Notes: a model not told the origin generated them from the letters alone. Positions 15,911 through 64,000 are shown, counted from the stretch's first letter. The stretch is DNA of 64,000 nucleotides from a virus (IMGVR_UViG_3300043252_000011:34429-98428), one strand, 5' to 3'. Program-made: numbers and translations.

Positions 15911-16861
15911 ATGGTAGCGTACTACAACGAAAAAGACCCGTTCGCAGCGGAATGGCTACGCAAATTAATTGCTGCGAACATCATCGCACCCGGCGACGTT
16001 GACGAAAGAAGCATTGAAGATGTTATTCCCATGGAACTCGCCAAGTACACACAATGCCATTTCTTCGCCGGCATCGGTGTCTGGTCTTACGCCATGCGCC
16101 GCGCCGGCTGGCCCGATGACCGCCACGGCTGGAGCGGTTCGTGCCCATGCCAGCCTTTCAGCCAGGCAGGCCAAGGCGCGGGGTTTGCTGACGAGCGGCA
16201 CCTATGGCCTGCGTTTTTCCATCTTATCGAGCAGTGCCGCCCTGACATCGTTTTTGGTGAGCAGGTTGCGAGCCCGGACGGATTTGCTTGGTTCGACCTT
16301 GTACAGTCTGACATGGAAGGTACGGACTACGCCTTCGGGGCGCTCGATCAATGCGCTGCGGGCTTCGGCGCGCCGCATATCAGACAGCGGCTATACTGGA
16401 TGGCCTACGACAACAGCGCGGGACTGGCCCAGCAACAGCGCAACGGAAGAATACCATTCGGAACGCTGGTCGCACTCCCGCGGGAAGGCGCTGAACGAAT
16501 TAACGGAGCAACTAGCGGGATGGAACAGCACGTCGGCGTCGGACGGGAATGGCGGCAAACGTCCGCACCCGGATACGACAATGACGGGGCGGCACCCGAA
16601 CGGCAACAAAATCAATATGGGGGTGTCATCGCAAGCACACCTAGCATTCTTGAACGTGCAGCCGGCCCGACTAACGGTTACTGGCGAGCTGCTGATTGGC
16701 TCCGATGCAAAGATGACAAGTGGCGGCCAGTTGAACCCAGCGCATTCCCGTTGGCTCATGGGGTTGCCAATTGAGTGGGACTTCTGCGGGGTTACGGTAA
16801 CGCTATCGTCGCGCCGCAAGCGCAAGAATTTGTGAAGGCAGCCATGCAGTACATGCCATGA
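15911..16861 (+). pseudogene. C5 cytosine methyltransferase (alpha frame) with in-frame TGA at 16772-16774
   Basis: FFAGIG, GSCPCQPFS, EQV and PHIRQR motifs; motif X RGYGNAIV lies in frame after the TGA. Confidence 0.75.
15969..16835 (+). CDS. Overlapping alternative-frame MTase beta subunit (M.EcoHK31I-like)
   Basis: LNPAHSRWLMGLP motif IX-like; same frame is conserved at 53986-54810. Confidence 0.55.
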   Translation: MLRTSSHPATLTKEALKMLFPWNSPSTHNAISSPASVSGLTPCAAPAGPMTATAGAVRAHASLSARQAKARGLLTSGTYGLRFSILSSSAALTSFLVSRLRARTDLLGSTLYSLTWKVRTTPSGRSINALRASARRISDSGYTGWPTTTARDWPSNSATEEYHSERWSHSRGKALNELTEQLAGWNSTSASDGNGGKRPHPDTTMTGRHPNGNKINMGVSSQAHLAFLNVQPARLTVTGELLIGSDAKMTSGGQLNPAHSRWLMGLPIEWDFCGVTVTLSSRRKRKNL

Positions 16862-17181: not shown

Positions 17182-17648
17182 CAAAAGACGAAGTTATTAA
17201 TAAAATTGTCACTGATCTAGCGTGGCGCGGGCCGAGCGGACGACCGATGAATTTTGTTTGTCTAACACGTGAACAAGCGATAGTCCTAATAAAGCCAGAG
17301 CCAGAAAAAGAGACTTCTAAATGACCGCATACTGGCCAACGGCTGCCGTAATGCAGCATCTGGACGGCTACCAGCGAGTCGGACTGGTAAACGCTTCGCT
17401 CGGCACGTCGCAACTAATGATGGTTGCCTGCCATATAACGCGACCAGCAAGATATCCGCCTGCACGTCATTGGCAGTCATTCAATCGAAAGGCGCCGGAA
17501 TGCGTTGCGTTTACCTGAGCTACCCCGACTACGGCCAATGGACCGCCCTGGAGCGCGGCGGCTTTGTGGAAATGTGGGACGATTTCGGCTTTGTGATGGA
17601 CGCGCTGCATTGACAGCGTACGGTAGCAGGTGTACAGAATAACAACAA

Positions 17649-17775
17649 GAATGTCGCCAACTTAGAGGTATTCCGATGCACCGACCGAGCGAATTTTTAG
17701 CCTGGGCCGTCGAGACATTCGGTCCGGTTGCCCTCAAGCGCAAAGAACGCCTTATGCGCTTTACTGAGGAAGCAA
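17649..17775 (+). repeat. 127-bp direct repeat, copy 1
   Basis: Identical to 63874-64000. Confidence 0.95.
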
Positions 17776-18029
17776 TCGAACTCGCGCACGCGGACGGCCT
17801 TAAGCGGGCTGATTTGGATAGGCTTTTGGACCGCGTTTATTCGCGTCCTGCTGGCCATGTGTGGCGCGAAATCGGCCAAGCGCAGGCGTGCCTAGAAACC
17901 TACGCCCAAAGCATCGGCGTGTCTGCGGACGAACAGGCGCAGAAGGAATTTGATCGGGTGCGCAAAATCCCGAAAGAGGAATGGACGAAACGCCACGCGG
18001 CCAAGGTCGGCCTTGGTATCGCCGGCTGA
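17676..18029 (+). CDS. MazG-like NTP pyrophosphohydrolase-fold protein
   Basis: ERLMRFTEEAIEL...EIGQ pattern. Confidence 0.55.
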   Translation: MHRPSEFLAWAVETFGPVALKRKERLMRFTEEAIELAHADGLKRADLDRLLDRVYSRPAGHVWREIGQAQACLETYAQSIGVSADEQAQKEFDRVRKIPKEEWTKRHAAKVGLGIAG

Positions 18030-18053
18030 TACGGAATTAACACGGAGATTGAT

Positions 18054-18284
18054 GTGAAAAAGACGATCACGCCCGACGAGCGCCTCCAAGCCTTCGCACT
18101 CTTTGTAATGGCTTGCCAGCACGCTCAGGAATGCCGCCGATACGAGCGGGCCATCGCCAAGATTTTCGGCGACACCGACGAGTTCAATTCGCGGGTTAGC
18201 GATTCCATCTACGGGAGTGAGCCCAATGGGGCCTCTGTCGAGTTCGATGAAATCTTGGAAGGCAACGAGATCAAGGTGAAGTGA
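18054..18284 (+). CDS. Hypothetical protein
   Basis: 76 aa, RBS ggag. Confidence 0.55.
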   Translation: MKKTITPDERLQAFALFVMACQHAQECRRYERAIAKIFGDTDEFNSRVSDSIYGSEPNGASVEFDEILEGNEIKVK

Positions 18285-18700
18285 TGGCGCGCTTTGCTGC
18301 CCAAACTCGAGTTGGCGTCGATCAAACCCGTGTTGAGATCGAGCGCACGCTGGCGCGCTATGGTGCCACCGCGTTCGGCTACATCAGCAAGCAGGGCGTG
18401 GCCATCATTGGCTTTGAGGCGGCTAAGAGGCACATCAAAATTACTGTGCCGCTTCCAGTCGGCGAAGATGAAAAGACGAAGCAGCAAGCCCGGCAGCGCT
18501 GGCGCGCCCTACTCCTGGTCATCAAGGCCAAGCTCGAATCTGTCGAAAGCGGCATCGAGACTTTGGAGGAAGCATTCTACGCAAACATCGTCATGCCGGA
18601 CGGCCGCACGATCTATGAAAGCACGCGCGAGCATGTTGCGGTCGCTTACAAGACCGGCAAGGTGCAGGGACTTTTGCCGGATTACACGAAGTCCGGTTAA
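18281..18700 (+). CDS. Conserved hypothetical phage protein
   Basis: EIERTLARYGA...RWRALLLVIKAKLE...EEAF motif. Confidence 0.7.
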   Translation: MMARFAAQTRVGVDQTRVEIERTLARYGATAFGYISKQGVAIIGFEAAKRHIKITVPLPVGEDEKTKQQARQRWRALLLVIKAKLESVESGIETLEEAFYANIVMPDGRTIYESTREHVAVAYKTGKVQGLLPDYTKSG

Positions 18701-18722
18701 TGACAGAACACTCGCCAACTTC

Positions 18723-19625
18723 ATGACCCAGGCAGCGACCATAGAAGCTCCTACCCGCCCGGCACTCCGCTGGCACGGCGGTAAGTGGAAGCTCGCGCCG
18801 TGGATCATGTCGCATTTCCCGCCGCACCGGGTCTACGTTGAGCCGTTCGGTGGTGCTGCCTCCATCCTGCTCCGCAAGGAGCGCGTCTATGGGGAGGTTT
18901 ATAACGACCTGGACGACTGGGTTGTGAACCTATTCCGCGTCCTCCAAAACGAGGAACAGGCGGCACGCCTAGTCCGGCTGCTCGAGGTCACACCCTTCGC
19001 CCGGACTGAATTTGAAGTCGCGCGCAAGCTCGGCGAGGCGGAAGGCGACCCGGTTGAATTGGCCCGCCGGCTGATAATCCGATCCTACATGGGCTTTGGG
19101 TCCAATGCGCACGACGGCCGATCGACAGGCTTCCGGTCGAACAGCAACCGTAGCGGCACGTTGCCGGTGCAAGATTGGGCCAATTACCCCCAGGCGCTGC
19201 TTAAGATAGTCGAGCGGTTCCGAGGCGTGGTGATCGAACATCGTGACGCCACCGCCGTCATGGTGCAACACGATAGCCTCGAGACGCTGCATTACGTGGA
19301 TCCTCCATATCTCCCTGAGGTCCGATCGCCGGCAAATAAATACGGCCTGAAATACCGGATGTACCGGCACGAAATGGACGCTGCCGGCCACCTAACGCTG
19401 ATTGAGGCGCTGCACCAGCTCGAGGGAATGGTCATCCTATCCGGTTATCCCCCCCCTTTGTACGAATCCGCGCTGCCTGGCTGGCGACGATCAGAGACGG
19501 CCGCCCTAGCCGATGGCGCGCGGAAGCGCACGGAAGTTCTTTGGATCAATCCGGCCGCCGCCGAAGGCCTCGATCGCGTGCGGCGAGGTCATGAGTTTGG
19601 TTTGTTCGCAACAGTTGGCGGTTAA
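18723..19625 (+). CDS. dam: DNA adenine methyltransferase (D12 class)
   Basis: RWHGGKW, YVEPFGG, EVYND and DPPY motifs. Confidence 0.9.
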   Translation: MTQAATIEAPTRPALRWHGGKWKLAPWIMSHFPPHRVYVEPFGGAASILLRKERVYGEVYNDLDDWVVNLFRVLQNEEQAARLVRLLEVTPFARTEFEVARKLGEAEGDPVELARRLIIRSYMGFGSNAHDGRSTGFRSNSNRSGTLPVQDWANYPQALLKIVERFRGVVIEHRDATAVMVQHDSLETLHYVDPPYLPEVRSPANKYGLKYRMYRHEMDAAGHLTLIEALHQLEGMVILSGYPPPLYESALPGWRRSETAALADGARKRTEVLWINPAAAEGLDRVRRGHEFGLFATVGG

Positions 19626-19647
19626 CTTCTGCTTAACAGGGACACCG

Positions 19648-20732
19648 ATGGCTGAGCACTGGAAAGATAAGGACGGCGTGATCCACTGCGAAGGCGTCGA
19701 GTCCGGCGACTATCTGCTTTGTGGCCTAGCGCCGGAAGGCGAGAATGGCGACGATGAATTGCCGACAAAAACGCACGCTTCGATCAATTGTAGCAATTGC
19801 GTCGCCATCATTGCCTTTTGCCGCCGCATCCGACCGGGAGAATTTGTATCAACCGTGCGAGCACAGAGGTAACGGCAATGGCTATCGTCGAAGTTCACCT
19901 GGTCGAAGATCGCGCCAAAATCTATAGCAGCACGGGCGCTGTTTACGAGATTTGCGACGATCATTTTGACCAACCGACTGTCAAAGTCCTAGAAATGGGC
20001 GGCCGTGGTTATGAACGCTCGCAAACGCAAGTCGAGAGAGACGATCAGCTAAAACGCTATCGTCGGGCGCTTGAAAATATCATGTACTGTGAGGCGACCA
20101 TGTGCGCCGACTACGTTGAAGAAATGAAGGAACTTGCACGCAACGCCCTTATGAGGCCGCGATGACCCGCTCCCAACTCGAAATGGCCGCCCAGGCAATC
20201 GCCAAAGAACACGGCTGCGGCCTGGACGACAATGGCGGAATATGCCCGGCCGGCGACAAAGGCGAGCCATGTATGTGCGAGAGGTTCGCGCGGGTTGCGT
20301 TGCGAGCGGCAGAGGAATGCGCGCTTTGCGAAACACCGGAGACAACATGATCTTAAAAAACGGCTTCGATACAGGAAAGTCCTGTTGTTTTTGCGGTGCC
20401 GACATTACCAACTGTGAACGAGGCTATGCTGGAGAGCCGTGTTGTCGCGCTTGCGGCAAGGGCGGCAATGGCGAGCCTGACGAGGCTTACATGGCTTACA
20501 AGGGAAACCTACCAGCGCCGCTCTGGTTTTGGGGATGATAGCGATGGCACGAGACAAATTCGATATGGCGGCGAGTTTCATCGTCGAGGAACATATCCGT
20601 ATCTACGACAAGATGGTGCCGCATCCCGACGCGATTAAAGACGCCGTCGCGAAAGAATTGCGCCAAACATGGAACGAGGCCATTGACGCGGTGATCGCCA
20701 AGGCAAAGACAATCGCCGCCGTAATCGACTAA
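19648..20732 (+). CDS. Five small hypothetical genes (19648-19872, 19878-20165, 20162-20350, 20347-20538, 20544-20732)
   Basis: Tightly packed or overlapping ORFs with RBS, several Cys-rich. Confidence 0.5.
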
Positions 20733-20754
20733 CCCGTCCAATGTAGGGAGATTC

Positions 20755-21018
20755 ATGATGGCGGCGAAGGAAGATCATCTGCGCGACCGGCTTCTGCGGA
20801 TCGTGCTTGACGCGATCGAGCTGAAAGAGGTCTCCCGCGAGGAGGCGCTGGCCGCCTGCATGGGTACTGCAGCAACTGTCCTCGGCACCTATTCGGAAGA
20901 TCAGCGTGAGGCAGTTGCGCTGGCGCTTGATGGCGTCTTGCTCAAACACGCCAATGCGCGCGCTCGACAGCTCCGATCTGGGGAAGTCGACGCCGACATG
21001 GCGCGCGCTAATCAGTAG
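20755..21018 (+). CDS. Hypothetical protein
   Basis: 87 aa, RBS gggag. Confidence 0.55.
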   Translation: MMAAKEDHLRDRLLRIVLDAIELKEVSREEALAACMGTAATVLGTYSEDQREAVALALDGVLLKHANARARQLRSGEVDADMARANQ

Positions 21019-21019
21019 A

Positions 21020-21247
21020 ATGTCGCTCAAAACCCAACCACGCGAAGATGCCACGGGCCGATATGGCTTCGAGGGCGATTGGGGTCGCAAATGTCTCTGC
21101 GGTCACGAGCTTGGCGTTCACACCGCCGCAGCGCCGCACGAGTGCATGAACGCGGATCGGCACCACATGATGGGTGGTCCCTGGATGGACAAGACGATCA
21201 CGGCGACGACCTGCTACTGCACCAAATTCAGACCAGTAAAAAAGTAA
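21020..21247 (+). CDS. Cys/His-rich hypothetical protein
   Basis: CLCGH..H...C...CYC..F. Confidence 0.55.
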   Translation: MSLKTQPREDATGRYGFEGDWGRKCLCGHELGVHTAAAPHECMNADRHHMMGGPWMDKTITATTCYCTKFRPVKK

Positions 21248-21357
21248 CATCACATTAACTTGGAGAAATCCCGTGAAGATCATCATGCGAAACGCGCACG
21301 ATACACTTGCAGCCTTCCAGACCGCGCAGGGCATGGAGAAGGCCGGCTAACGATGAA

Positions 21358-21977: not shown

Positions 21978-22271
21978 ATGGCCTATACGGCACAAGAGAT
22001 TATCGATCACCTTCGCTACTTTTGGCAAAAGGCCGAAGGTATCGACTACGGCCAAGAGCACGAGGTCATGAAAGCCGCCGCGGCCCAGATCGAATCCGAC
22101 GCGAAGGTGATCACGGCGTTGAGGGAGACGCTTGAGGGATACGCATGTTATGGATTGGAGAAGTGCCCAGTTCCAAAGCTCAATGACGGTTCGTGCATTC
22201 ACGCCGGTACGGGCCACTGCGGCGACGCGGCATTCCGCGCTATTGAGCAGACAGCGGGGGAAACAAATTAA
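21978..22271 (+). CDS. Hypothetical protein
   Basis: 97 aa, RBS. Confidence 0.55.
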   Translation: MAYTAQEIIDHLRYFWQKAEGIDYGQEHEVMKAAAAQIESDAKVITALRETLEGYACYGLEKCPVPKLNDGSCIHAGTGHCGDAAFRAIEQTAGETN

Positions 22272-22625
22272 ATTCAGCGGCACCAAAGACCTTGAAATCG
22301 AACTGATGCCCGATAGCTCGGTGAGATTGACGATGCGCTATGCGACATCCTACGAGGCCACAATCGCATATGACGAGATTACCACTGCGGCAAGGACGGG
22401 CAAGCTCAAGATGAACCTCGAGCTGGGCGAAGTCTTGGAAGAAGAAGGCCCACGAATATAAGCGATATGTCGGGAAACAATGGAGAAACAGAATGGGAAT
22501 TAACTTAATCGGCTTAGGCCGCGATGTCGCACCTAAGATAGACACGAAAGCACGGGAGCTAGCACGCCTTCGGGATGCTCTTGAAAAAATTGCCCACGTT
22601 ACGGGAGAAGATGATCCTGCTATAT

Positions 22626-23025
22626 CATGCTTATCCGGTTGCCACACACAAACGCTTGAGAGGTACTAGATGTTGATCGAACGCCGAGGCTTGTTGACCG
22701 GGATCGTCGCAACTCTTTGCGCGCCTTCAATTGTGCGCGCGGGATCATTGATGCGGATCGCTGGCGAGCGGTATCGAATTTGGGGGTTTTCGTGTCCTTT
22801 GCTGCCGCCAGCGGAGGCGGCCTACAACAATCCGGCTTTATGGGACAAATATCTCGGGCCAACTCGCCGCCTTCAATTCGGAACATGGACGTTTTTCGGC
22901 AAAACCGGGAACGTCTATACCGACGACGTGATTGACTTTGCGAAGCAGGAATATCCGGATGCGCTCCCGTGGCCTGCGCATCAGGCACAAGATGTAGGGC
23001 TGTGTGTCTAAACCGGATAAGCATG
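22626..23025 (+). mobile_element. Non-autonomous TIR cassette 1 (IS1595/ISSod11-like ends), 400 bp
   Basis: TIR catgcttatccggtt; 8-bp TSD tgctatat (22618-25 and 23026-33). Confidence 0.88.
22670..23011 (+). CDS. Cassette 1 cargo with twin-arginine-like N-terminus
   Basis: MLIERRGLLTGIVATLCAPSIVRA; start and stop lie in the element ends. Confidence 0.65.
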   Translation: MLIERRGLLTGIVATLCAPSIVRAGSLMRIAGERYRIWGFSCPLLPPAEAAYNNPALWDKYLGPTRRLQFGTWTFFGKTGNVYTDDVIDFAKQEYPDALPWPAHQAQDVGLCV

Positions 23026-23093
23026 TGCTATATTATGGCCGTGGGCTCAAAAGATTGCGCTGGAAGCACTCGACTAACAAGAGATATGTCGAA

Positions 23094-23901
23094 ATGGGCG
23101 ATCATCGCTTTGAATTAAAGGCTGAATTTTCCATGCACGGGCATGAGAAGAAAATAAATTGGAATCTAAATTGGAGCGATAGTATCCCCGAGCGCTTGGC
23201 GGAATGGGTTGAACAACAGTATCAAGAAGCCATGAATTTCTGGTACGAAGCCGAATGGACCGCCGAAGATCATCGTAACGCCGAAATAGAGAGAACCGAA
23301 CGGGCAGAGTTGGATCGCCTTAAAGCCAAATACGAACCGCCACACTAAACAAGAGTTAGCATGGTCATGAGCCAATATCTTTCGCTTTACGATGCCCAGA
23401 CTGAAATCCTGCAGTGGCTTGAATCGAAAGGCCACGCGGTTGATTATGGTTCTGGCAAACCTCTCGATGATTGGCGGGTATGGCAGATGTGCAAAAGAAA
23501 GCGGCGGTTTCAGATGCGTCCAGAGGAAGATGAGCGTCGCCGCGTGTACGCCTGTCCGCATTGCGAGGGCTGGCATTTTACCCGGCGCCGATAGTAGACA
23601 AGTTAACACGCAGGAGCTTGGAATGAGCAATACTGACGGACAGCGCGATATCACCTTGGCGATGGAAGCAGAACTCGCGACAGTGTCTAAGACCACCGTG
23701 GCAGCAGCAGCCAAAGCGGCGGAAGATCAAGACATCGCCTATGTGATGACGCAGCAGATCAACTGCATCATCGATGCCAATGTGCGGCTTCGCGGCTCGC
23801 ACCGCCTCGTCGGCGCCGATGTCCAGGCGTGGGTCAACATGGTGGATTATCTGACGCGGGAAAAGGAAGGACTTACCGCAAAGCGCCAGCGGCAGAACTA
23901 A
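23094..23901 (+). CDS. Three small hypothetical genes (23094-23348, 23361-23594, 23623-23901)
   Basis: ORFs separated by palindromic sites; the middle one has YACPHCEGWH. Confidence 0.55.
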
Positions 23902-52842: not shown

Positions 52843-52858
52843 CATTTCACGTGAAACA
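52843..52858. promoter_or_regulatory. parS: parS-like palindrome (14/16)
   Basis: catttcacgtgaaaca versus consensus TGTTTCACGTGAAACA. Confidence 0.65.
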
Positions 52859-52931
52859 TTAGGGAATTATATACTTGACTCCATTTCCGATTTGGGCTAG
52901 TTTTCGGGCATGAATTGAGGGAAAAACGGCC

Positions 52932-53861
52932 ATGTCCAAGTCCACCATTTCGACGTTTGAACTGTTCGCCCTGATCCCCGATGCGGAGACGGCGCGGACC
53001 TATTTGGAGGCCCGCCTGTGGCCGAACGGGGCAACCTGCCCGGTCTGCGGCCTTGGCGAGCGGGTGACGGTTCGGAAGGGCAAGCCCGGCTTCTACCACT
53101 GCCAACAGTGCGCAGAGGACTTTACGGTGCGCACCGGCACGATATTCGAGCGCAGCCATGTCCCGCTGCACAAGTGGGTTTACGCGATGTACCTGCTCGT
53201 AACGGCCCGCAAGGGCATATCCAGCCTGCAACTCGCCAAGGAAATCGGCGTCACCCAAAAGTCGGCTTGGTTCATGTTGCAGCGGCTCCGCGAAGCCTGC
53301 GGAAAAGACCTGACTATGCTTCAAGGGCTGGTCGAGGTTGATGAAACCTACGTGGGCGGCTTGGAGGCCAACAAGCACGAAGCCGACAAACTGCGCATGG
53401 GGCGCGGCCCGGTCGGCAAGCAGCCCGTTTTGGGCTTGCGGGAAAAGGGCAAAGGTGGTCGCGTCAAGGCGTTCAAGATCGACAGTACCGACGCGGGCAC
53501 GATCACCGATGTCATCGTTCAAAACGTGGCGGTCGGATCGACCCTGCACACTGACGAAGCCCAAGCCTACGGCGAGATCGGCGGCCTGTTCTTCGATCAT
53601 GCGACGGTCAACCACTCGGCTGGCGAATACGTCAAGGACGGCGTTTCGACCAATTCGATTGAGTCCGTTTTCGCGGTTTTGAAGCGCGGCCTGATCGGCG
53701 TCTACCATCACGCCAGCCCCAAGCATATCGGCCGCTACGTTGACGAATTTGCGTTCCGGTTGAACGAGGGCAACGTGGCCCGGCACACCCTGGAACGGCT
53801 GGACTCGTTCGTCAGTCGCGTTGCGGGCAAGCGGCTCACCTATAAGGCGCTGATCGCATGA
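52932..53861 (+). CDS. tnp: IS1595-family (ISXO2-like) DDE transposase
   Basis: CPVC Zn ribbon, VEVDETYVGG, LHTDE, TNSIES, YVDEFAFRLN. Confidence 0.95.
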   Translation: MSKSTISTFELFALIPDAETARTYLEARLWPNGATCPVCGLGERVTVRKGKPGFYHCQQCAEDFTVRTGTIFERSHVPLHKWVYAMYLLVTARKGISSLQLAKEIGVTQKSAWFMLQRLREACGKDLTMLQGLVEVDETYVGGLEANKHEADKLRMGRGPVGKQPVLGLREKGKGGRVKAFKIDSTDAGTITDVIVQNVAVGSTLHTDEAQAYGEIGGLFFDHATVNHSAGEYVKDGVSTNSIESVFAVLKRGLIGVYHHASPKHIGRYVDEFAFRLNEGNVARHTLERLDSFVSRVAGKRLTYKALIA

Positions 53862-53989
53862 GCGCGCCAGCGAAGCCCCCAGCGGCGTTAGACGCGATTG
53901 CGGACAAGGTTCTCCGCTACCGTCCCAAGCCCAAAACGAAACCAGCGAAAAGGCGCAAACGCCGTGCCCGCCTATTACAACGAGATTGA
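53858..53989 (+). CDS. Small basic ORF after the transposase
   Basis: Hand-translated 43 aa: MSAPAKPPAALDAIADKVLRYRPKPK... Confidence 0.5.
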   Translation: MSAPAKPPAALDAIADKVLRYRPKPKTKPAKRRKRRARLLQRD

Positions 53990-54836
53990 CCCCCATGCCG
54001 CACAGTGGCTCCGCAATCTTATCTCCGCTGGTCACATTGCAGCGGGGGACGTTGACGAGCGATCTATCGTTGACGTGCGGCCCGACGACCTTGGCGGATA
54101 CGAGCAAGCCCATTTCTTCGCCGGTATCGGCGGATGGTCCTACGCCTTGCGGCTCGCCGGATGGCCCGATGATCGATCGATCTGGACCGGCTCCTGTCCG
54201 TGTCAGCCGCTTTCGAGCGCGGGACAACGCAAGGGCCATGCCGACGAACGACACCTCTGGCCCGCTTTTTACCGCCTCATCGCCGAGTGCGCGCCTGCAA
54301 TCGTCTTTGGAGAACAGGTTGCGAGCAAGGATGGACGTGAATGGCTCGCCGGAGTTCGCGCTGACTTGGAAGCATTGGGATTTACCTGCGGGGCCGCCGA
54401 TCTGTGCGCTGCGGGCGTCGGCGCGCCCCATATCCGTCAACGGCTCTATTGGGGTGCCGACGCCGGTAGTACCGAACGGTGGTCGCCGGCCGAAGGGCGG
54501 GGCGATGTCGCTCAAAGGCCAGACGCCAGACGGCAAAAAACGACAGGTCGATCTGGATTTCTTTGTCCGCCGAGCCTTGGCACACCCGACGCCGATGCAC
54601 GGCGCACAGAACGAGGCGGCGCACAATGCGATGTCGGGCCAGTGGAAAACGGCCATTGGTCGGATGTCGAATGGGTCGCGGCTGGCGACGAAGGGCAGTT
54701 CCGCATTAAACCCGGCATATCCTTGCTGGCTCATGGGATTCCCGGACGTGTGGGACGGATTCGCGGGTACGGCAACGCGATTGTCCCGCAAGTCGCGTCC
54801 GAGTTCGTGAGCGCCTTCATGGAAAGTCGCCCTTGA
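53964..54836 (+). CDS. C5 cytosine methyltransferase (IS passenger, alpha frame)
   Basis: FFAGIGG, GSCPCQP, EQV, RIRGYGNAIVPQ. Confidence 0.85.
   Translation: MPAYYNEIDPHAAQWLRNLISAGHIAAGDVDERSIVDVRPDDLGGYEQAHFFAGIGGWSYALRLAGWPDDRSIWTGSCPCQPLSSAGQRKGHADERHLWPAFYRLIAECAPAIVFGEQVASKDGREWLAGVRADLEALGFTCGAADLCAAGVGAPHIRQRLYWGADAGSTERWSPAEGRGDVAQRPDARRQKTTGRSGFLCPPSLGTPDADARRTERGGAQCDVGPVENGHWSDVEWVAAGDEGQFRIKPGISLLAHGIPGRVGRIRGYGNAIVPQVASEFVSAFMESRP
53986..54810 (+). CDS. Overlapping alternative-frame MTase beta subunit
   Basis: LNPAYPCWLMGFP motif; homologous to 15969-16835. Confidence 0.55.
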   Translation: MTPMPHSGSAILSPLVTLQRGTLTSDLSLTCGPTTLADTSKPISSPVSADGPTPCGSPDGPMIDRSGPAPVRVSRFRARDNARAMPTNDTSGPLFTASSPSARLQSSLENRLRARMDVNGSPEFALTWKHWDLPAGPPICALRASARPISVNGSIGVPTPVVPNGGRRPKGGAMSLKGQTPDGKKRQVDLDFFVRRALAHPTPMHGAQNEAAHNAMSGQWKTAIGRMSNGSRLATKGSSALNPAYPCWLMGFPDVWDGFAGTATRLSRKSRPSS

Positions 54837-54956
54837 AATGAGCGAATGGACTCATGTATATAATTCCCAAACATTATAAGCCAGTCACAACTGCTCCACC
54901 CCGCCAAGTGATTGTAGCAGAAAATCTGTGTGCGGCAATTAGGAGCCGACGCAAAC

Positions 54957-57182: not shown

Positions 57183-57572
57183 CATGCTTATCCGGTTTAG
57201 ACACACAGCCCTACATCTTGTGGTTATGTTTCGACGTTTGCACGCGGTTCATTAAATAATCTGCATGGATCATCTGGCCATTCCATGCGATCATGTAGGT
57301 TGCCGTGGCGGAAAGACTCATAGTCTTCCTCGCCAGAGCCTATAGAGCGGCGCAACATTTCCGTACATCGCAGGCAAACCACGGTCTTGAGATTACGAGT
57401 TATGGCCAGATGACCACACGCTAGCTCTACGATGCGTCGGGTCTGGTCTTTGCCGAGACGATCCCGATTAAAGCCAGTCGCTATAATGTCGGTTCGCACA
57501 ATTCGTTCGGGTGGTGTTTGGATCAACATCTAGTAGGTCTCAGCGTTTGTGTGTGGCAACCGGATAAGCATG
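57183..57572 (-). mobile_element. Non-autonomous TIR cassette 2 (ISSod11-like ends), 390 bp
   Basis: Same ends as cassette 1, inverted; TSD taatgttt (57175-82 and 57573-80). Confidence 0.88.
57224..57529 (-). CDS. Cassette 2 cargo, hypothetical (LACGH..CLRC)
   Basis: 101-aa ORF filling the element. Confidence 0.65.
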   Translation of the reverse strand: MLIQTPPERIVRTDIIATGFNRDRLGKDQTRRIVELACGHLAITRNLKTVVCLRCTEMLRRSIGSGEEDYESFRHGNLHDRMEWPDDPCRLFNEPRANVET

Positions 57573-57575
57573 TAA

Positions 57576-57591
57576 TGTTTCACGTGAAACA
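57576..57591. promoter_or_regulatory. parS: Perfect parS palindrome
   Basis: tgtttcacgtgaaaca, 16/16 consensus. Confidence 0.8.
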
Positions 57592-58530: not shown

Positions 58531-59036
58531 TACGACTCCCCGCGCGCTCGATATGCCATCTGGCAATGAAACCGGCAATACGGCACTGCATCATCTTTTG
58601 CTGCACCGCAATACAGCATGTCGCGGCCGGGCTCGCCGAGCGGCCATCGGCATGTGGTCGAGGTCAGCCCAAAAATATCCACCGCGCTCGCTGGCGTAGG
58701 GATGGCCGGTAGATCGGTTAGGCCGGGAGGCTGTGAGACGCCCAGCGCATGAAAGGCCATTCCCTGACCTTCCTGGCGCGATTGGCGGGGCTTCCTAGGG
58801 GTATTGAGCGTAATCCGCACATTGCCGATGCCATGCCGCAATTGCCGGGTTTTCCTTTTCACGATGACCCGTTTCGGCAACCCAAGCCTGATGATCTTGG
58901 CGACGACCGCGTTGCGGGTAATGCCGTCGCCGAGCTCGCGGGCTATCTCGCCGCCCGACATGCCGTCGCTGTGGCATTGCCGCAACACTTGCACGCGGGT
59001 CTCGGTCCAGAATGTGCCGGCGCCGGCGGGCATCAT
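58530..59036 (-). CDS. gcrA: GcrA-family regulator homolog
   Basis: WTETRV..L..IARELG.GITRNAVVAK..RLGL; CRWPLG..YCG..PYC..H. Confidence 0.9.
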   Translation of the reverse strand: MMPAGAGTFWTETRVQVLRQCHSDGMSGGEIARELGDGITRNAVVAKIIRLGLPKRVIVKRKTRQLRHGIGNVRITLNTPRKPRQSRQEGQGMAFHALGVSQPPGLTDLPAIPTPASAVDIFGLTSTTCRWPLGEPGRDMLYCGAAKDDAVPYCRFHCQMAYRARGES

Positions 59037-59248
59037 TCCGCCGCCTGTTGTCGTTGTCGGTGGGCAAATTCAAAGGCCATGTCGGCCAGCACCCGCTCGA
59101 TCAGCTTAGGTGCCGACCCCTTCTTGGGCGGCCCATGGTTTTCCCAATCGGTGTAAGTCGATCGGTCGACGCCAAATCTTCGGGCAAACACATCCTGGGT
59201 TTCGGCCATACGGCGCCTTGCGCGCCAAAGAGTGGTTGCTGTGACCAT
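59033..59248 (-). CDS. Cro/XRE-like HTH regulator, probably leaderless
   Basis: TQDVFARRFGVDRSTYTDWE; -10 element ends just 6 nt upstream of the ATG. Confidence 0.7.
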   Translation of the reverse strand: MVTATTLWRARRRMAETQDVFARRFGVDRSTYTDWENHGPPKKGSAPKLIERVLADMAFEFAHRQRQQAAE

Positions 59249-59254
59249 GGTGGC

Positions 59255-59283
59255 AGCATAAATATTTTTTGGTGCGAAGTCAA
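59255..59283 (-). promoter_or_regulatory. sigma70-type promoter TTGACT-17-TATGCT
   Basis: In the divergent intergenic region before the HTH gene. Confidence 0.55.
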
Positions 59284-59608
59284 CATTGGCGCTTGCATTA
59301 TTTTGCGGATGTGGGAATATCACAAAATGAGCCACGAGAGCGACGGTAGTCCGATCTTGGCCATCATCATGCCTGCGCTGTGGGCGCTGGCGATCGGGAT
59401 TATCGCTTGGAGGCAATGGCATGGCCGGTAGCCTGCGCGACCAGCTTTGCGCCGCTCACACGCTGGCATGGCAGCAGCAGCGCCACGAGGACGAGATCGC
59501 TTTGCTCCGCGCTATCGCCAAGATCGACGGCAAGCCGCTGCGGCACCATCGTGATACGCGCGACGATTTTCAAAAGGATTACGACGAGGAACAAGAAGGG
59601 ACCTACCG

Positions 59609-60478
59609 ATGAACGTGCCAGCCATCAAAACCGCAACCGCGGTTGCCTCCCACCCATTCAGTGCCGACCAGATCGACCTTATCAAGCGCACCATCTGTAA
59701 AGGCTCGACCGACGACGAACTCCGGCTATTCCTATATCAGGCCGGCCGCACCGGGCTCGATCCGCTCGCTCGACAAATCTATTCGATCGAGCGGCGTGAA
59801 TACCGCGACGGCCAATGGGTCAAGGCGCGATCAATACAGACATCGATCGATGGTTTCCGCCTGATCGCCGAACGCAGTGGCAAGTACGCCGGCCAGGTCG
59901 GCCCGTATTGGTGCGGCGCCGACGGCCAATGGCAAGACGTATGGATCGCGCCGGAATCGCCGATCGCCGCCCGGGTTGGGGTGCTGCGCACCGATTTCAA
60001 GGAACCATGCTGGGGCGTGGCGCGCTTCGATGCCTACGCGCAAAAGACCAAGGACGGCGTTCCGACGCGCATGTGGAAAACCATGGGCGACGTTATGGTG
60101 GCGAAGTGCGCCGAAGCACTGGCGCTGCGCAAGGCATTTCCGCAAGAACTATCCGGTCTCTACACCGGCGATGAAATGATGCAGGCGGTCGAGGATTTCA
60201 CACCGCCAGCGCCGAAGAAAACAATCGCCGAAGATTTGAACGATGAAATTCCGTTCGGTGGCGACACGCCGAAGGCCGCTCCTGCTCAAAGCCCCCCCAG
60301 CCCTCAGGCAGGAGCGGCCAGTGCGCCCGTCGATGTGCTGGCGATGGCGCGTGAGGCCGCAAGCCACGGCTTCGATATGCTGAACACCTACTACAAAACG
60401 CTCGGCAAGAAGGATCAGAAAATTCTCAACGAGCATAAAGTTGAACTCGAAGCGCTGTTTCCGATCGATGCGGAATAG
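59609..60478 (+). CDS. bet: Phage recombination protein Bet/RecT
   Basis: GLDPLARQIY, IQTSIDGFRLIA, KCAEALALRKAFP. Confidence 0.9.
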   Translation: MNVPAIKTATAVASHPFSADQIDLIKRTICKGSTDDELRLFLYQAGRTGLDPLARQIYSIERREYRDGQWVKARSIQTSIDGFRLIAERSGKYAGQVGPYWCGADGQWQDVWIAPESPIAARVGVLRTDFKEPCWGVARFDAYAQKTKDGVPTRMWKTMGDVMVAKCAEALALRKAFPQELSGLYTGDEMMQAVEDFTPPAPKKTIAEDLNDEIPFGGDTPKAAPAQSPPSPQAGAASAPVDVLAMAREAASHGFDMLNTYYKTLGKKDQKILNEHKVELEALFPIDAE

Positions 60479-60506
60479 CCGCTCACGACAGGTTAGTGGG
60501 AAAACC

Positions 60507-61244
60507 ATGGCAGAAATATCGGGAATTTCTTGGACAGACGCTACGTTCAATCCGTGGATTGGATGCACGCGCGTAAGCCCCGCGTGTGATCGTTGCTATG
60601 CGGCCCGTGACAATGAACGCTGGAATTGGGTGCCCGGCTGGGGCGCAGGCGTCGCTAGGCGCCGCACGTCGGTCCAGAACTGGAACAAGGTGCTCAAATG
60701 GAATCGCGAAGCAGCGGCTTCGGGAAGGCCGCTACGGGTGTTCTGTGCGTCGCTCGCCGACGTGTTTGATAACGAGATCGAGCAGGCGTGGCGCAACGAC
60801 CTGTGGGACTTGCTTCGCGCTACGCCAAATCTGCGGTGGATACTTCTGACCAAGCGGATAGGCAACGCGCCGAAGATGCTACCCGCGTTCTGGCCCATGG
60901 CGCACGTCGGCTTGATGTCCACCCTCGAAAATCAAGAGGTATGGGACCGGGATTATCACAAGCTCGAAGCCGTGCCGGCGGCTTGGCATGGGGTGTCCGC
61001 CGAACCGTTGCTCAGCCATATCGATATCGGCGACGCTAAGCCGGATTGGATCATCACGGGCGGTGAAAGCGGCCCCGGCTTCCGGCCCCTCGATATGGAT
61101 GCCGTGCGCTCGCTTCGCGATCAATGCCGACGCAACGGCATCACTTTCCACCACAAGCAAAACGGCGGTATTCGCGGGAAGGATGCCGGCTGTTTGGTCG
61201 ATGGTGTCGAGCATAAATATTTTCCGCCAGCGTTGGCGGCTTAG
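60507..61244 (+). CDS. Phage Gp37/Gp68 (DUF5131) family protein
   Basis: ISWTDATFNPWIGCTRVSPACDRCYA, LLTKR, SAEPLL, GGESG. Confidence 0.9.
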   Translation: MAEISGISWTDATFNPWIGCTRVSPACDRCYAARDNERWNWVPGWGAGVARRRTSVQNWNKVLKWNREAAASGRPLRVFCASLADVFDNEIEQAWRNDLWDLLRATPNLRWILLTKRIGNAPKMLPAFWPMAHVGLMSTLENQEVWDRDYHKLEAVPAAWHGVSAEPLLSHIDIGDAKPDWIITGGESGPGFRPLDMDAVRSLRDQCRRNGITFHHKQNGGIRGKDAGCLVDGVEHKYFPPALAA

Positions 61245-61289
61245 GCACTATCAACAAGTATGTCGCCAACTTAGAGGTAGGAGAACACC

Positions 61290-61712
61290 GTGAACAAGCG
61301 CAGACTTCTGAGGTTGGCCGATCTGCTCGACGCAGACGCCAAGAACGAGGCGGGTGTCAAATTTAATCTGAGCGGGTGGGGTAGTTCGTCTACAGGCGCC
61401 CCGGCTAATGTTTCCTGCGGCACCACGGCATGTGCGATGGGGCTGGCGGTACTAAGTGGCGCGTTCGAACAAGACGGCCTCAGAAACGGATTTGGGCCGC
61501 GCTCATGCTCGGTCATTCCTTATTTTCAAACAGGGCAGAAAGTTGTGTCAGGCTTCAAGGCCGCGGCGAATCTGTTTGGCATTAGCCACAAGGCAGCCGA
61601 ATGGCTCTTTCAAGATGACCACTACCGCAAAAGCCAATGGACTGGTGCCGCAGGCGAACGCGCCGTGGCCCGCCGTATTCGCAAGTTCGTTGCTGGCGAA
61701 GCGCGACCGTAA
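61290..61712 (+). CDS. Conserved hypothetical phage protein
   Basis: RLLRLADLL...CGTTACAMG...VARRIRKF. Confidence 0.7.
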   Translation: MNKRRLLRLADLLDADAKNEAGVKFNLSGWGSSSTGAPANVSCGTTACAMGLAVLSGAFEQDGLRNGFGPRSCSVIPYFQTGQKVVSGFKAAANLFGISHKAAEWLFQDDHYRKSQWTGAAGERAVARRIRKFVAGEARP

Positions 61713-61731
61713 GACGGCGGCTGATACGGAA

Positions 61732-62175
61732 CATGCTTATCCGGTTGCCACACACAAACGCTGAGACCTACTAGATGTTGAAAACCCTCGTTTGGCCTGA
61801 GAAAAGCTATCAGTCGCTCGACCAAGGCATCCGATTTGCAGTGCGCGTTCTTCACGCGGCCGGGTTTGAAACCTGCCAGTCATGCCAGGGCGGTAAAGGG
61901 CACGCCTACAGCGACCCTACGGTTGATCTGAGAGCGGAAGCTGACGACGCCCGTGGTTTTGGAGCGCTCGCGGCGCTGCGAACCTACGGGCTTCCCATCG
62001 CGGAGGTAGCCATCGTTTGGCCTGTGCGGAACGGCTGCCCCTACGAGAAACTTTGGCGCATCACATTCAGCAAAACAATGGAAGATCGCGCCGATGAGAA
62101 GCCGAGTTTTGTTTTCGGGTATGCCGCAACATGACCGCAAGATATGGGGCTGTGTGTCTAAACCGGATAAGCATG
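61732..62175 (+). mobile_element. Non-autonomous TIR cassette 3 (ISSod11-like ends), 444 bp, no TSD
   Basis: Same ends as cassettes 1 and 2; flanks atacggaa and gttagcag differ. Confidence 0.85.
61775..62134 (+). CDS. Cassette 3 cargo, hypothetical (LDQGI..ETCQSCQGG)
   Basis: 119-aa ORF filling the element. Confidence 0.65.
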   Translation: MLKTLVWPEKSYQSLDQGIRFAVRVLHAAGFETCQSCQGGKGHAYSDPTVDLRAEADDARGFGALAALRTYGLPIAEVAIVWPVRNGCPYEKLWRITFSKTMEDRADEKPSFVFGYAAT

Positions 62176-62193
62176 GTTAGCAGGGAGATTAAA

Positions 62194-62898
62194 ATGGGTT
62201 GCGATATTCACCTTTACGTCGAGCATCGAAATGGCCAAGGTTGGGAAAGCTGCGACGTATGGGAGAAAAGCGAATACGAGCCGCACGAATTGACTGTGCC
62301 ATACGGCAAGCATTTTTATAGCGACCGCTCCTATGATACCTTTGCAATCTTGGCAGATGTGCGCAACGGCTATGGCTTTGCGGGGACCGATACCGGAGAC
62401 GGTTTTGTTCCGATTGCCGAGCCTCGCGGCTTACCCGACGATATGTCCCCACAACTCGCGGCAGAAGCCGCCGCGTTTTTGGAGCACACCCCATCGTGGC
62501 TAACAGCCAAAGAATTGATGGAGTATGACTGGACTCGCACCACAACAAAACGCGGATGGATCAGCGGCCCGCAATACGCCCATTGGATCAGATACCAGCG
62601 CGAGGATGGCGATGGGCCGAGAGAATGGTGCGGCGGAATCGGCGGCGGCGGTATTGAGCATATCGCGGAAGCGGAAATGGCGGAGCGCGTTGCCGCCGTT
62701 CAAGAACTGTTCAAGGGAGCAAACTACAAAGACTTGGAGCAGGCGTTGAAGGATCGGCTTGGCTCGACGTACTGCCAAGTATCCTGGCAAATTCCTTACT
62801 ATCGAGCGGCGTCCGGTTTTCTTAGCCGCGTCATGCCTCGCTTGTGGCGCTTGGGAAAGCCGGACGATGTGCGGATTGTCTTTTGGTTCGACAGCTAG
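62194..62898 (+). CDS. Conserved hypothetical phage protein (MGCDIH family)
   Basis: MGCDIH...RSY..F..LADVRN...PRGLP...RIVFWFD. Confidence 0.75.
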   Translation: MGCDIHLYVEHRNGQGWESCDVWEKSEYEPHELTVPYGKHFYSDRSYDTFAILADVRNGYGFAGTDTGDGFVPIAEPRGLPDDMSPQLAAEAAAFLEHTPSWLTAKELMEYDWTRTTTKRGWISGPQYAHWIRYQREDGDGPREWCGGIGGGGIEHIAEAEMAERVAAVQELFKGANYKDLEQALKDRLGSTYCQVSWQIPYYRAASGFLSRVMPRLWRLGKPDDVRIVFWFDS

Positions 62899-62926
62899 AG
62901 CCGACTTACACGGGGTTAGCGCCTAG

Positions 62927-63847
62927 ATGACCGAAAAGTGGACCAAGGGAGAATGGATTGGCGGCCTCGCCAGATGGGAGGTCGATCGCACGGTCTATTA
63001 CTCGATCGCGTTCACCTGGAAGCTTGATGAGGCGTTCGCGATGGCTCTTTTCGACAAGGCGCTGGGTAAGCGGGTAGTCGCTGGCGGTCCCGCGCTATTC
63101 CTAGCGAAGATGGCCCACGAAATTTCAACGGTGGCCGAGGTCGGTGGCAAGTTCGGGTACCCCGACGCGGTATCTCGGCACAATCCAATGGCGACCGAAT
63201 TTAGCTTTGGGTGCGACGTGGGCTGCGCCCATTGCATCGTGCCGGCGATGCACGGCCGGGTCTTTACGCTGGTCCCTGACGCTCCGGTGCGGCCGATCTT
63301 GTGCGACAACAACCTGTCTGCTTTGCCGACCGAGTTTCAGGACCATATCCTTGCCCGCTACCAGCGGGAGGAAGTTCCGATCCTTGATGCTAATTCGGGA
63401 TTTGAGCCGCGCACTTTCACTGAGGAAGTCTACCGCCGATGGAAGCCAACCCTAGACGCCTCCTATGCCCCGTGGCGGTTCGGCTACGACGATATGGTGG
63501 ATCAGCCTTATGTCAGGACCGTGTTCAAAATGCTTCGCAACGAGCCGACCAAGCGCAAGCGTGTCTATGTGATGATTGGGAACGAGCCCTATGCCGAATG
63601 CATGGAACGCATCTACGAGGTCATCGGCAACGGCTGCGAGCCGCATGTGCAGCCGGAAATCAAGTTGGTGTCTTGGGAGCGCAAGCCTTGGGTACGGCAC
63701 GATTGGACACGCCAGAAGCTAATCGACGTGGCCCGCTGGGCGAATGGCTGGGTCTATCGCAAGGTGCCGAACTTCGAGGACTACGACCGCAGCAACTCGA
63801 AGCGGCGATCGGAAAAGTACAACGCCCAAGAGGGTATGTTCGTGTAG
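62927..63847 (+). CDS. Radical SAM-like protein
   Basis: CDVGCAHC (CxxxCxxC), CDNN, VYVMIG. Confidence 0.7.
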   Translation: MTEKWTKGEWIGGLARWEVDRTVYYSIAFTWKLDEAFAMALFDKALGKRVVAGGPALFLAKMAHEISTVAEVGGKFGYPDAVSRHNPMATEFSFGCDVGCAHCIVPAMHGRVFTLVPDAPVRPILCDNNLSALPTEFQDHILARYQREEVPILDANSGFEPRTFTEEVYRRWKPTLDASYAPWRFGYDDMVDQPYVRTVFKMLRNEPTKRKRVYVMIGNEPYAECMERIYEVIGNGCEPHVQPEIKLVSWERKPWVRHDWTRQKLIDVARWANGWVYRKVPNFEDYDRSNSKRRSEKYNAQEGMFV

Positions 63848-63873
63848 CCCAAACAAATAGGCACTTACAGGAC

Positions 63874-64000
63874 GAATGTCGCCAACTTAGAGGTATTCCG
63901 ATGCACCGACCGAGCGAATTTTTAGCCTGGGCCGTCGAGACATTCGGTCCGGTTGCCCTCAAGCGCAAAGAACGCCTTATGCGCTTTACTGAGGAAGCAA
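63874..64000 (+). repeat. 127-bp direct repeat, copy 2
   Basis: Identical to 17649-17775, running to the end of the window. Confidence 0.95.

Follow-up and report, generated by a model that had tools for sequence, protein, structure and literature searches.

Short junctions with position-specific centres in a fixed order separate accessory genes in a clade of uncultivated soil phages

Downstream of recT in a viral genome, successive genes are separated by short sequences of similar build, which raises the question of what these junctions are and how the genes between them are replaced. The locus lies in IMGVR_UViG_3300043252_000011:34429-98428, a stretch of 64,000 nucleotides (the window) that comprises bases 34429-98428 of a 98,428-bp IMG/VR record. 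Two arrays are considered, one after recT at window 60486-63874 (REC_B, region B) and one at window 17643-21256 (REC_A, region A). A first-pass annotation of the window had claimed that the same site bounds every gene after recT, and had taken the matching ends of several units as what one would expect if each unit excises as a circle with its own palindromic joint, in the manner of integron cassettes. A cassette-like array with units delimited by one type of site is supported by our analysis; the integron analogy and the excision of units as circles are not. The arrays are early accessory-gene arrays in a clade of uncultivated soil phages, and the sites separate single open reading frames (ORFs) or small groups of ORFs.

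All five sites noted earlier in region B read exactly as described: 60479 CCGCTCA-cgacagg-TTAGTGG; 61245 GCACTAT-caacaag-TATGTCG; 61718 CGGCTGA-tacggaa, a 444-bp insert, then g-TTAGCAG; 62902 CGACTTA-cacgggg-TTAGCGC; and 63861 GCACTTA-caggacg-AATGTCG. A site does stand at every junction from recT to orf117, but these are sites of one type and not copies of one sequence. Each is about 25 bp long and consists of a loose 9-nt left arm, a 7-nt centre particular to the junction, and a 9-14-nt right arm. Over 60 sites, the consensus of the left arm is GSCGACTAA, with the upstream stop codon usually at its end, and that of the right arm is TWAGYMGGS, leading into a Shine-Dalgarno (SD) sequence and the start codon (full consensus GSCGACTAA-N7-TWAGYMGGS). 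The segments CGACAGG, CAACAAG, TACGGAA, CACGGGG and CAGGACG, previously taken for loops, are the conserved part; the centre is near-invariant at each position while the arms vary. The sites of region B and those of region A are as follows.

60477-60501, + strand: site 1, AGCCGCTCA-CGACAGG-TTAGTGGGA
61243-61289, + strand: site 2, AGGCACTAT-CAACAAG-TATGTCGCC, with the conserved leader as far as the GTG start
61716-61731, + strand: site 3, left arm and centre alone, GGCGGCTGA-TACGGAA (unsplit form at window 18021-18045)
62900-62924, + strand: site 7, GCCGACTTA-CACGGGG-TTAGCGCCT
63859-63901, + strand: site 8, AGGCACTTA-CAGGACG-AATGTCGCC, fused to a site-2-type leader
17634-17675, + strand: region A site 2, centre CAACAAG at 17643-17649, with leader
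18021-18045, + strand: region A site 3, unsplit, GCCGGCTGA-TACGGAA-TTAACACGG
18692-18716, + strand: region A site 4, centre TGACAGA at 18701-18707, where the Dam unit begins
19617-19641, + strand: region A site 5, GGCGGTTAA-CTTCTGC-TTAACAGGG, where the Dam unit ends (17.9 bits on the arms-only matrix)

A leader of some 40 nt (CAACAAG-TATGTCGCCAACTTAGAGGTA...) is common to two of the five region B sites and occurs three times in the window. Elsewhere, in viral and metagenome contigs, it is about 95% identical and is kept as far as the start codon before eight different ORFs; an 18-mer from it gave only chance matches in GTDB genomes. A single repeated sequence was rejected as a description of the junctions, since an nhmmer profile of the leader at 61245 and 63861 finds its own copies and not sites 1, 3 and 7. 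A matrix built from the arms only, trained without the record, scored the four unsplit REC_B sites at 10.2-14.3 bits, although used alone it is unspecific (41 matches on the + strand, 32 on the - strand, and 23 in shuffles). Dyad symmetry of the arms is present at the consensus level only: 3.75 of 9 positions pair within a site, against 3.90 when arms of different sites are matched and 2.2 when the arms are shuffled. Pairing within a site is thus no better than across sites, which argues against a hairpin. The hairpin reading was rejected on three grounds: RNA folds of ten intergenic regions were no better than shuffles (z -0.96 to +1.1), the arms of a site do not co-vary, and the pairing of unit ends has no G-U excess. 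The 5 promoter-like matches in 58700-64000 all fall outside the sites, as do the 7 terminator-like matches, and Rfam gave no match at the sites.

For 4/5 upstream ORFs, a second in-frame stop lies inside the site (60476-60496, 61242-61274, 61710-61724 and 62896-62919). The first stop of orf140, a TAA, stands where the relative L138 reads CAA, suggesting that the ancestral orf140 stop was the TGA of the left arm.

The sites exceed chance, and the evidence for this comes from other phages and not from the window alone. Ten centres form a series: 1 CGACAGG, 2 CAACAAG, 3 TACGGAA, 4 TGACAGA, 5 CTTCTGC, 6 CTGAGGT, 7 CACGGGG, 8 CAGGACG, 9 CCGCCGA and 10 CATCACA. The five window centres sit at gene junctions, in the same order, in the relatives G001, G002, G003 and G004 and partly in G005. 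The site-1 centre is at the first array junction in G001-G005, L182, L183, L206, L212 and L296. By rank, the centres present are 1,2,3,7,8 in REC_B, 2,3,4,5,10 in REC_A, 1-9 in G001, 1-10 in G002, 1,2,5-10 in G003, 1-10 in G004, and 1-5,9 in L182. The colinear chain reached 22/25 in five relatives, compared with 9.2 +/- 2.2 (maximum 17) for letter-shuffled centres (0/5000). Twelve further arrays reached through site 8 or site 9 alone proved colinear as well. A scan keyed on site 8 alone added L194, L205, L206, L212, L216 and L241, and an independent scan keyed on site 9 alone added L296, L301, L308 and L309; in both cases the other sites were again ordered. The REC_B order is a colinear subset of a series found in at least 18 arrays from distinct contigs. 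An initial reading of the junctions, as a stop codon and ribosome-binding site with one mobile leader, was dropped once the ordered centres appeared in relatives.

Four further occurrences were recorded. Within L228:297-600, CCGCCGA-ttaa-CAGGACG is present twice, 279 nt apart, with no gene between the two centres and with the rank order reversed. In the other half of the record, outside the window and apart from the main array there, positions 23279 and 23541 carry sites 8 and 9, whose arms score well (14.1 and 15.4 bits). At window 22084-22125, a 37-nt island in an ORF (21978-22271) is 89-94% identical in G001 and G004, and the surrounding gene is unmatched. The more distant relative L187 (12200-13960) is without ordered sites and has its own repeat (gactct-CATCACA-gggccatcagtagg...) 4-5 times between small genes.

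The junctions are much better conserved than the genes between them, because the leader is 95-97% identical while genome-wide blastn of the record against the relatives' contigs gives only scattered 70-80% nucleotide matches, and the orf140 protein is 46-56% identical. The earlier gene labels hold for RecT (called 'bet'), DUF5131, the 140-aa ORF, the 234-aa ORF, the weak radical-SAM-like ORF and the region A D12 methylase. The genes of region B are these.

59609-60478, + strand: recT (PF03837 RecT, 1.1e-30; phrog_2780), with the array beginning downstream
60507-61244, + strand: DUF5131 cassette gene, Gp37/Gp68 family (PF07505, 2.9e-64)
61290-61712, + strand: orf140 cassette gene, the sole slot gene common to the window and relatives
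62194-62898, + strand: orf234 cassette gene (phrog_10141, function not known)
62927-63847, + strand: weak radical-SAM-like cassette gene (phrog_9298, 1e-5; no Pfam match)
63902-64000, continuing beyond the window end, + strand: orf117, with a second exact copy at 17676-18029

Of these genes, orf140 alone recurs in its slot, the same or a neighbouring one, with 56% amino acid identity in G001 and 46% in G005. Searches of the five relative records and of the further loci found no homolog of RecT, orf234, the radical-SAM-like gene or orf117; orf117 also had no relatives in IMG/VR, and GenBank phages gave weak gene-level matches only. No DUF5131 homolog was found in its own slot among the relatives searched. 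Slot length is also variable; slot 1->2, for example, ranges from 149 to 766 nt. The first-pass annotation had asked whether the arms travel with a gene. DUF5131 homologs occupy slot 4->5 in L205 and L240, with different arms, and the distant homologs of orf234 (<=52% amino acid identity) are without arms but are uninformative at such a distance.

Sequence comparisons place the recent breakpoints within a few bases (<=5 nt) of the centres. Rightward from AACAACAAG, L156 and L157 share about 99% identity; leftward they are unrelated. In the record itself, bases 1-394 are repeated exactly at window 17649-18042, and the first 127 bases of this repeat occur again at window 63874-64000. The repeat contains orf117 with its leader and site 3, and it includes the record's 127-bp 'terminal repeat'. 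Its first base is the final base of a centre, CAACAAG for one copy and CAGGACG for the other, and it stops 5 nt beyond TACGGAA. Because the terminal repeat belongs to this exact 394-bp repeat, the 98-kb record is most likely a fusion, at a shared orf117 cassette, of two related phage genomes measuring about 52 and 46 kb. The right arm ATGTCGCC is common to site 2 and site 8 in relatives, and we read the record's site 8 as an out-of-register joint made in this arm.

Some cassette ends had also been described as mutually complementary, and the quoted pairs do exist (8/10 for the radical-SAM unit; CGCCAACT/AGTTGGCG for the Dam unit). Within the window the effect is marginal: with unbiased 20- or 30-nt flanks, 13 units gave p 0.03-0.04, and the units of region B taken alone gave p 0.2-0.26. 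With 14-nt arms from 83 units of 14 arrays, own ends paired better than permuted ends (z 2.9 for within-phage permutation; z 3.3 against same-slot cross-phage permutation), and pairing peaked at the own-unit offset (5.92 vs 4.9-5.5). Complementarity of own ends is weak: it reaches z of about 3 over the 83 units, but region B alone is not significant and a hold-out of four arrays (22 units) gave z 0.5. The signal comes from about 15 units, and 68/83 units pair no better than chance. The strongest own ends are those of the G005 unit 4->5 (13/14), the G003 unit 2->5 (12/14) and the window's radical-SAM unit (10/14). Arms of one and the same site paired below permuted arms (z -1.9). Where an extra ORF is flanked by the same centre, the layout left by integration of a circle, the inner arms pair poorly, at 1-5/14. 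These data are suggestive only of an own-end complementarity across arrays, in which both arms of a cassette facing its gene, rather than the arms of one site, tend weakly to pair. Own-unit pairing above own-site pairing, together with the lack of co-variation within sites, is expected if crossovers fall close to the centre and each cassette carries its flanking arms along.

The reading that we lean towards, with somewhat more belief than doubt, is that genes would be exchanged through short homology at position-specific linkers, slot for slot. In every array examined the series is colinear while the ORFs between the centres are replaced. The junctions would serve as position-specific linkers, or 'addresses', at which co-infecting or resident related phages recombine, swapping genes slot for slot and leaving the operon unbroken. 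Crossovers would fall in the centre or within a few bases of it, and the adjoining arm, often a leader with the ribosome-binding site, would travel with one or the other neighbouring gene. The likeliest agent would be short-homology recombination, carried out by host functions or by an annealing protein of the phage (the RecT encoded just ahead of this array is an example), with the 11-45 nt of near-identity at each junction as substrate. Phage annealing proteins permit recombination on short, diverged homology (PMC3945230).

Several points weigh against short-homology exchange. At several junctions the exactly matching stretch spans only 11-15 nt, little for homologous recombination. No RecT homolog was found in the five relative records searched, the genes upstream of the relatives' arrays matched no known function, and there is no recombination gene common to all arrays. 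Doubled centres in G004, G005, L194, L212 and L216 break the strict order; centres 9 and 8 are fused in L228, and centre 8 is joined to a site-2 leader in the record. The sites were located by exact centre match, an ascertainment bias by which mutated centres are missed. The exchange itself is reconstructed from sequence.

Alternatively, the junctions could be the core sites of a site-specific recombinase, a host Xer-type or an unrecognised phage enzyme, with bound arms and the 7-nt centre as the overlap. The different centres would then act like heterospecific lox or FRT sites, and exchange would proceed by double crossover or integration of a circle. We consider this unlikely, even though it accounts for the arm-7-arm layout with its loose consensus dyad (3.8/9 vs 2.2 for shuffled arms), for the near-invariant centre and variable arms at each position, and for breakpoints <=5 nt from the centres. 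The excess of own-unit over own-site pairing, as in hybrid attL/attR-type sites, and the extra ORF flanked by the same centre in five arrays also fit. No PF00589 match was found in the 98-kb record, G001, G003 or G004, however; G002 has one 15-bit match below the cut-off, and a PF00239 serine recombinase is present in only 3/5 records. The out-of-register joints made in arms (centre 8, or G005 centre 1, with the site-2 leader) sit badly with a requirement for matching centres, and conservation to 45 nt, reaching the start codon, exceeds the need of a core site. The arms of doubled-centre units pair poorly, and end pairing was not reproduced in the hold-out. A dedicated, addressed cassette-exchange system, in which the centres would be heterospecific crossovers for a host Xer-type or novel phage enzyme and cassettes, each with a pair of inverted arms of its own, would move between phages by double exchange or as circles, is doubtful to the same degree.

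It is rather improbable that the junctions are expression signals only (stop, spacer and translation initiation, perhaps processing or coupling), kept by selection while genes are replaced illegitimately and only recombinants with intact signals survive. The left arm usually ends in a stop and the right arm leads into an SD-like AGGGAG or GGAGG and the start, the leader is kept to the start codon before 8 different ORFs, and there is the second in-frame stop inside the site for 4/5 upstream ORFs. A common signal, however, would be expected as one sequence and not as ten ordered, position-specific centres, and an SD-like purine run (AGG or GGGG) is found only in CGACAGG, CACGGGG, CAGGACG and CTGAGGT. 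The sites also have no folding signal, promoter, terminator or Rfam match, the end pairing has no G-U excess, and breakpoints coincide with centres within 5 nt.

The integron-like reading, in which a unit would excise as a circle with a palindromic joint and re-insert via an integrase, is very improbable: some ends are strongly complementary (13/14, 12/14 and 10/14), overall z is about 3 in 14 arrays, and right arms often read GTTAG or GTTAA, recalling GTTRRRY, yet no IntI-type recombinase was found beside the array (PF00589 search of the record and four relatives) and no other tyrosine recombinase scored above the Pfam cut-off, the sites of about 25 bp have no folding signal, no Rfam match and no 57-141-bp folded palindrome of the attC type, the arms of one site do not co-vary (3.75 vs 3.90 of 9), the centre order is fixed, unlike in integron arrays, end pairing failed in the hold-out and was not significant in region B alone, 68/83 units have ends no better than chance, and the inner arms of doubled-centre units pair at 1-5/14.

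The nearest published analogue of the junctions is found in T4-type phages, whose PeSLs (promoter-early stem-loops) are short conserved intergenic elements that, within a plastic region, flank small ORFs which are non-essential (Arbiol et al. 2010, PMC2839356). PeSLs were shown to be the places where crossovers insert, delete or replace ORF cassettes, and were equated with the 'linker sequences' of modular theory (PMC2839356). A PeSL is one repeated motif, a sigma-70 promoter with a terminator stem-loop, and recombination between neighbouring copies yields mini-circles (PMC2839356). The junctions described here are likewise short conserved intergenic linkers around ORF cassettes, but they are without promoter, terminator or stable hairpin, and each has its own centre in a fixed order. 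Heterospecific lox/FRT sites and lambda-type 7-7-7 cores have two loosely inverted arms around a 6-8-bp spacer, a layout that the junctions recall at the level of their consensus; in lox/FRT, differing spacers keep exchange in register and the cassette-side arms move with the cassette. In contrast to those systems, no matching phage recombinase gene was found here, and some joints were made inside arms and between different centres. Integron attC cassettes resemble the units in their promoterless ORFs of the same orientation and their short, imperfectly symmetric sites, and perhaps in having ends that can pair, whereas IntI, attI and a 57-141-bp folded attC are missing here and the site order is fixed.

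The modular theory put forward by Botstein in 1980 reportedly held that linker sequences at module boundaries guide in-register exchange between related phages. Conserved boundary sequences have been reported in lambdoid phages; the theory dealt with functional modules of many genes and had little sequence support. Here, by comparison, single ORFs are bounded, and the series is ordered in 18 arrays. In the pdif (XerC/XerD) modules of Acinetobacter plasmids, the sites are short and the arms facing a module are more alike than the arms of one site. Successive pdif sites point in opposite directions and have a common type of 6-bp spacer, whereas here all sites have one orientation and their 7-nt centres are position-specific.

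Phage mosaicism at gene boundaries is an old open question, and the linker idea has had little support from sequences outside the PeSLs of T4-type phages. The junctions provide a concrete, testable case, with ten short ordered junctions in at least 18 arrays and almost all of the genes between them differing, and correct the integron reading of the array. If they are recombination joints, they would predict where exchanges occur and would be a handle for finding accessory genes (defence or counter-defence) in uncultivated phages. If they belong to an addressed system, these phages would hold their accessory genes in a rack of numbered slots.

The 444-bp insert that splits site 3 in region B is E2, a separate, ordinary mobile element and the only unit with true inverted-repeat ends.

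61732-62175, + strand: E2, IS1595-type miniature element of 444 bp, with 15-bp perfect terminal inverted repeats CATGCTTATCCGGTT and a passenger ORF at 61775-62134
62176-62193, + strand: right arm and leader after E2, G TTAGCAGGGAGATTAAA

Two sister copies in the window, E1 (22626-23025) and E3 (57183-57572), each carry a different ORF and an 8-bp target duplication (TGCTATAT for E1 and TAATGTTT for E3). At least 42 paired copies of the E2-type element were found in IMG/VR, most of them also with duplications. No target duplication was found for E2, whose flanks are ATACGGAA and GTTAGCAG, and its right flank, G TTAGCAGGGAGATT, equals the right arm that site 1 has in G002 and G003. Because of these two features, we read E2 as a bridge between two half-junctions, one from site 3 and the other of the site-1 type. 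The joint probably arose when two copies of the element recombined. In L028, L061 and L111, long elements encoding PF12762 and PF12760 transposases have these same 15-bp ends. E2 is without a transposase of its own, the sole transposase that the record encodes lies in an element whose ends differ from those of E2, and the conserved left end of E2 provides the start codon of its passenger ORF. E2 resembles the miniature inverted-repeat transposable elements and mobile insertion cassettes of the IS1595 family in its terminal repeats, the 8-bp duplications of its sisters, the lack of a transposase and its one passenger; it is unlike them in having no duplication of its own and in the left end that supplies the passenger's start codon. 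A literature search for IS1595 passenger elements in phages gave nothing specific.

Further observations concern related elements. In G003, a one-ended remnant of a miniature element (L136:10621-11035), with the right end only, lies behind a signal-peptide ORF and stands where that array's sites 3 and 4 are missing. E1, with its duplication TGCTATAT, splits an ORF beginning at 22493, whose frame picks up again at 23026 and runs to 23077. Window 52862-54868 holds a complete IS1595-family element with its own ends (GGGAATTATATAC...), a transposase at 52932-53861, an 8-bp duplication AAACATTA, and a C5-methylase-like passenger at 53898-54836 that is 70% like 16166-16409. This element and E3 duplicated the same 8-mer (52845-52861 and 57573-57590), AAACATTA being the reverse complement of TAATGTTT, and both duplicated 8-mers adjoin TTTCACGTGAAACA. 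The shared 8-mer and neighbour suggest that a palindromic, operator-like target, TAATGTTTCACGTGAAACATTA, was struck twice.

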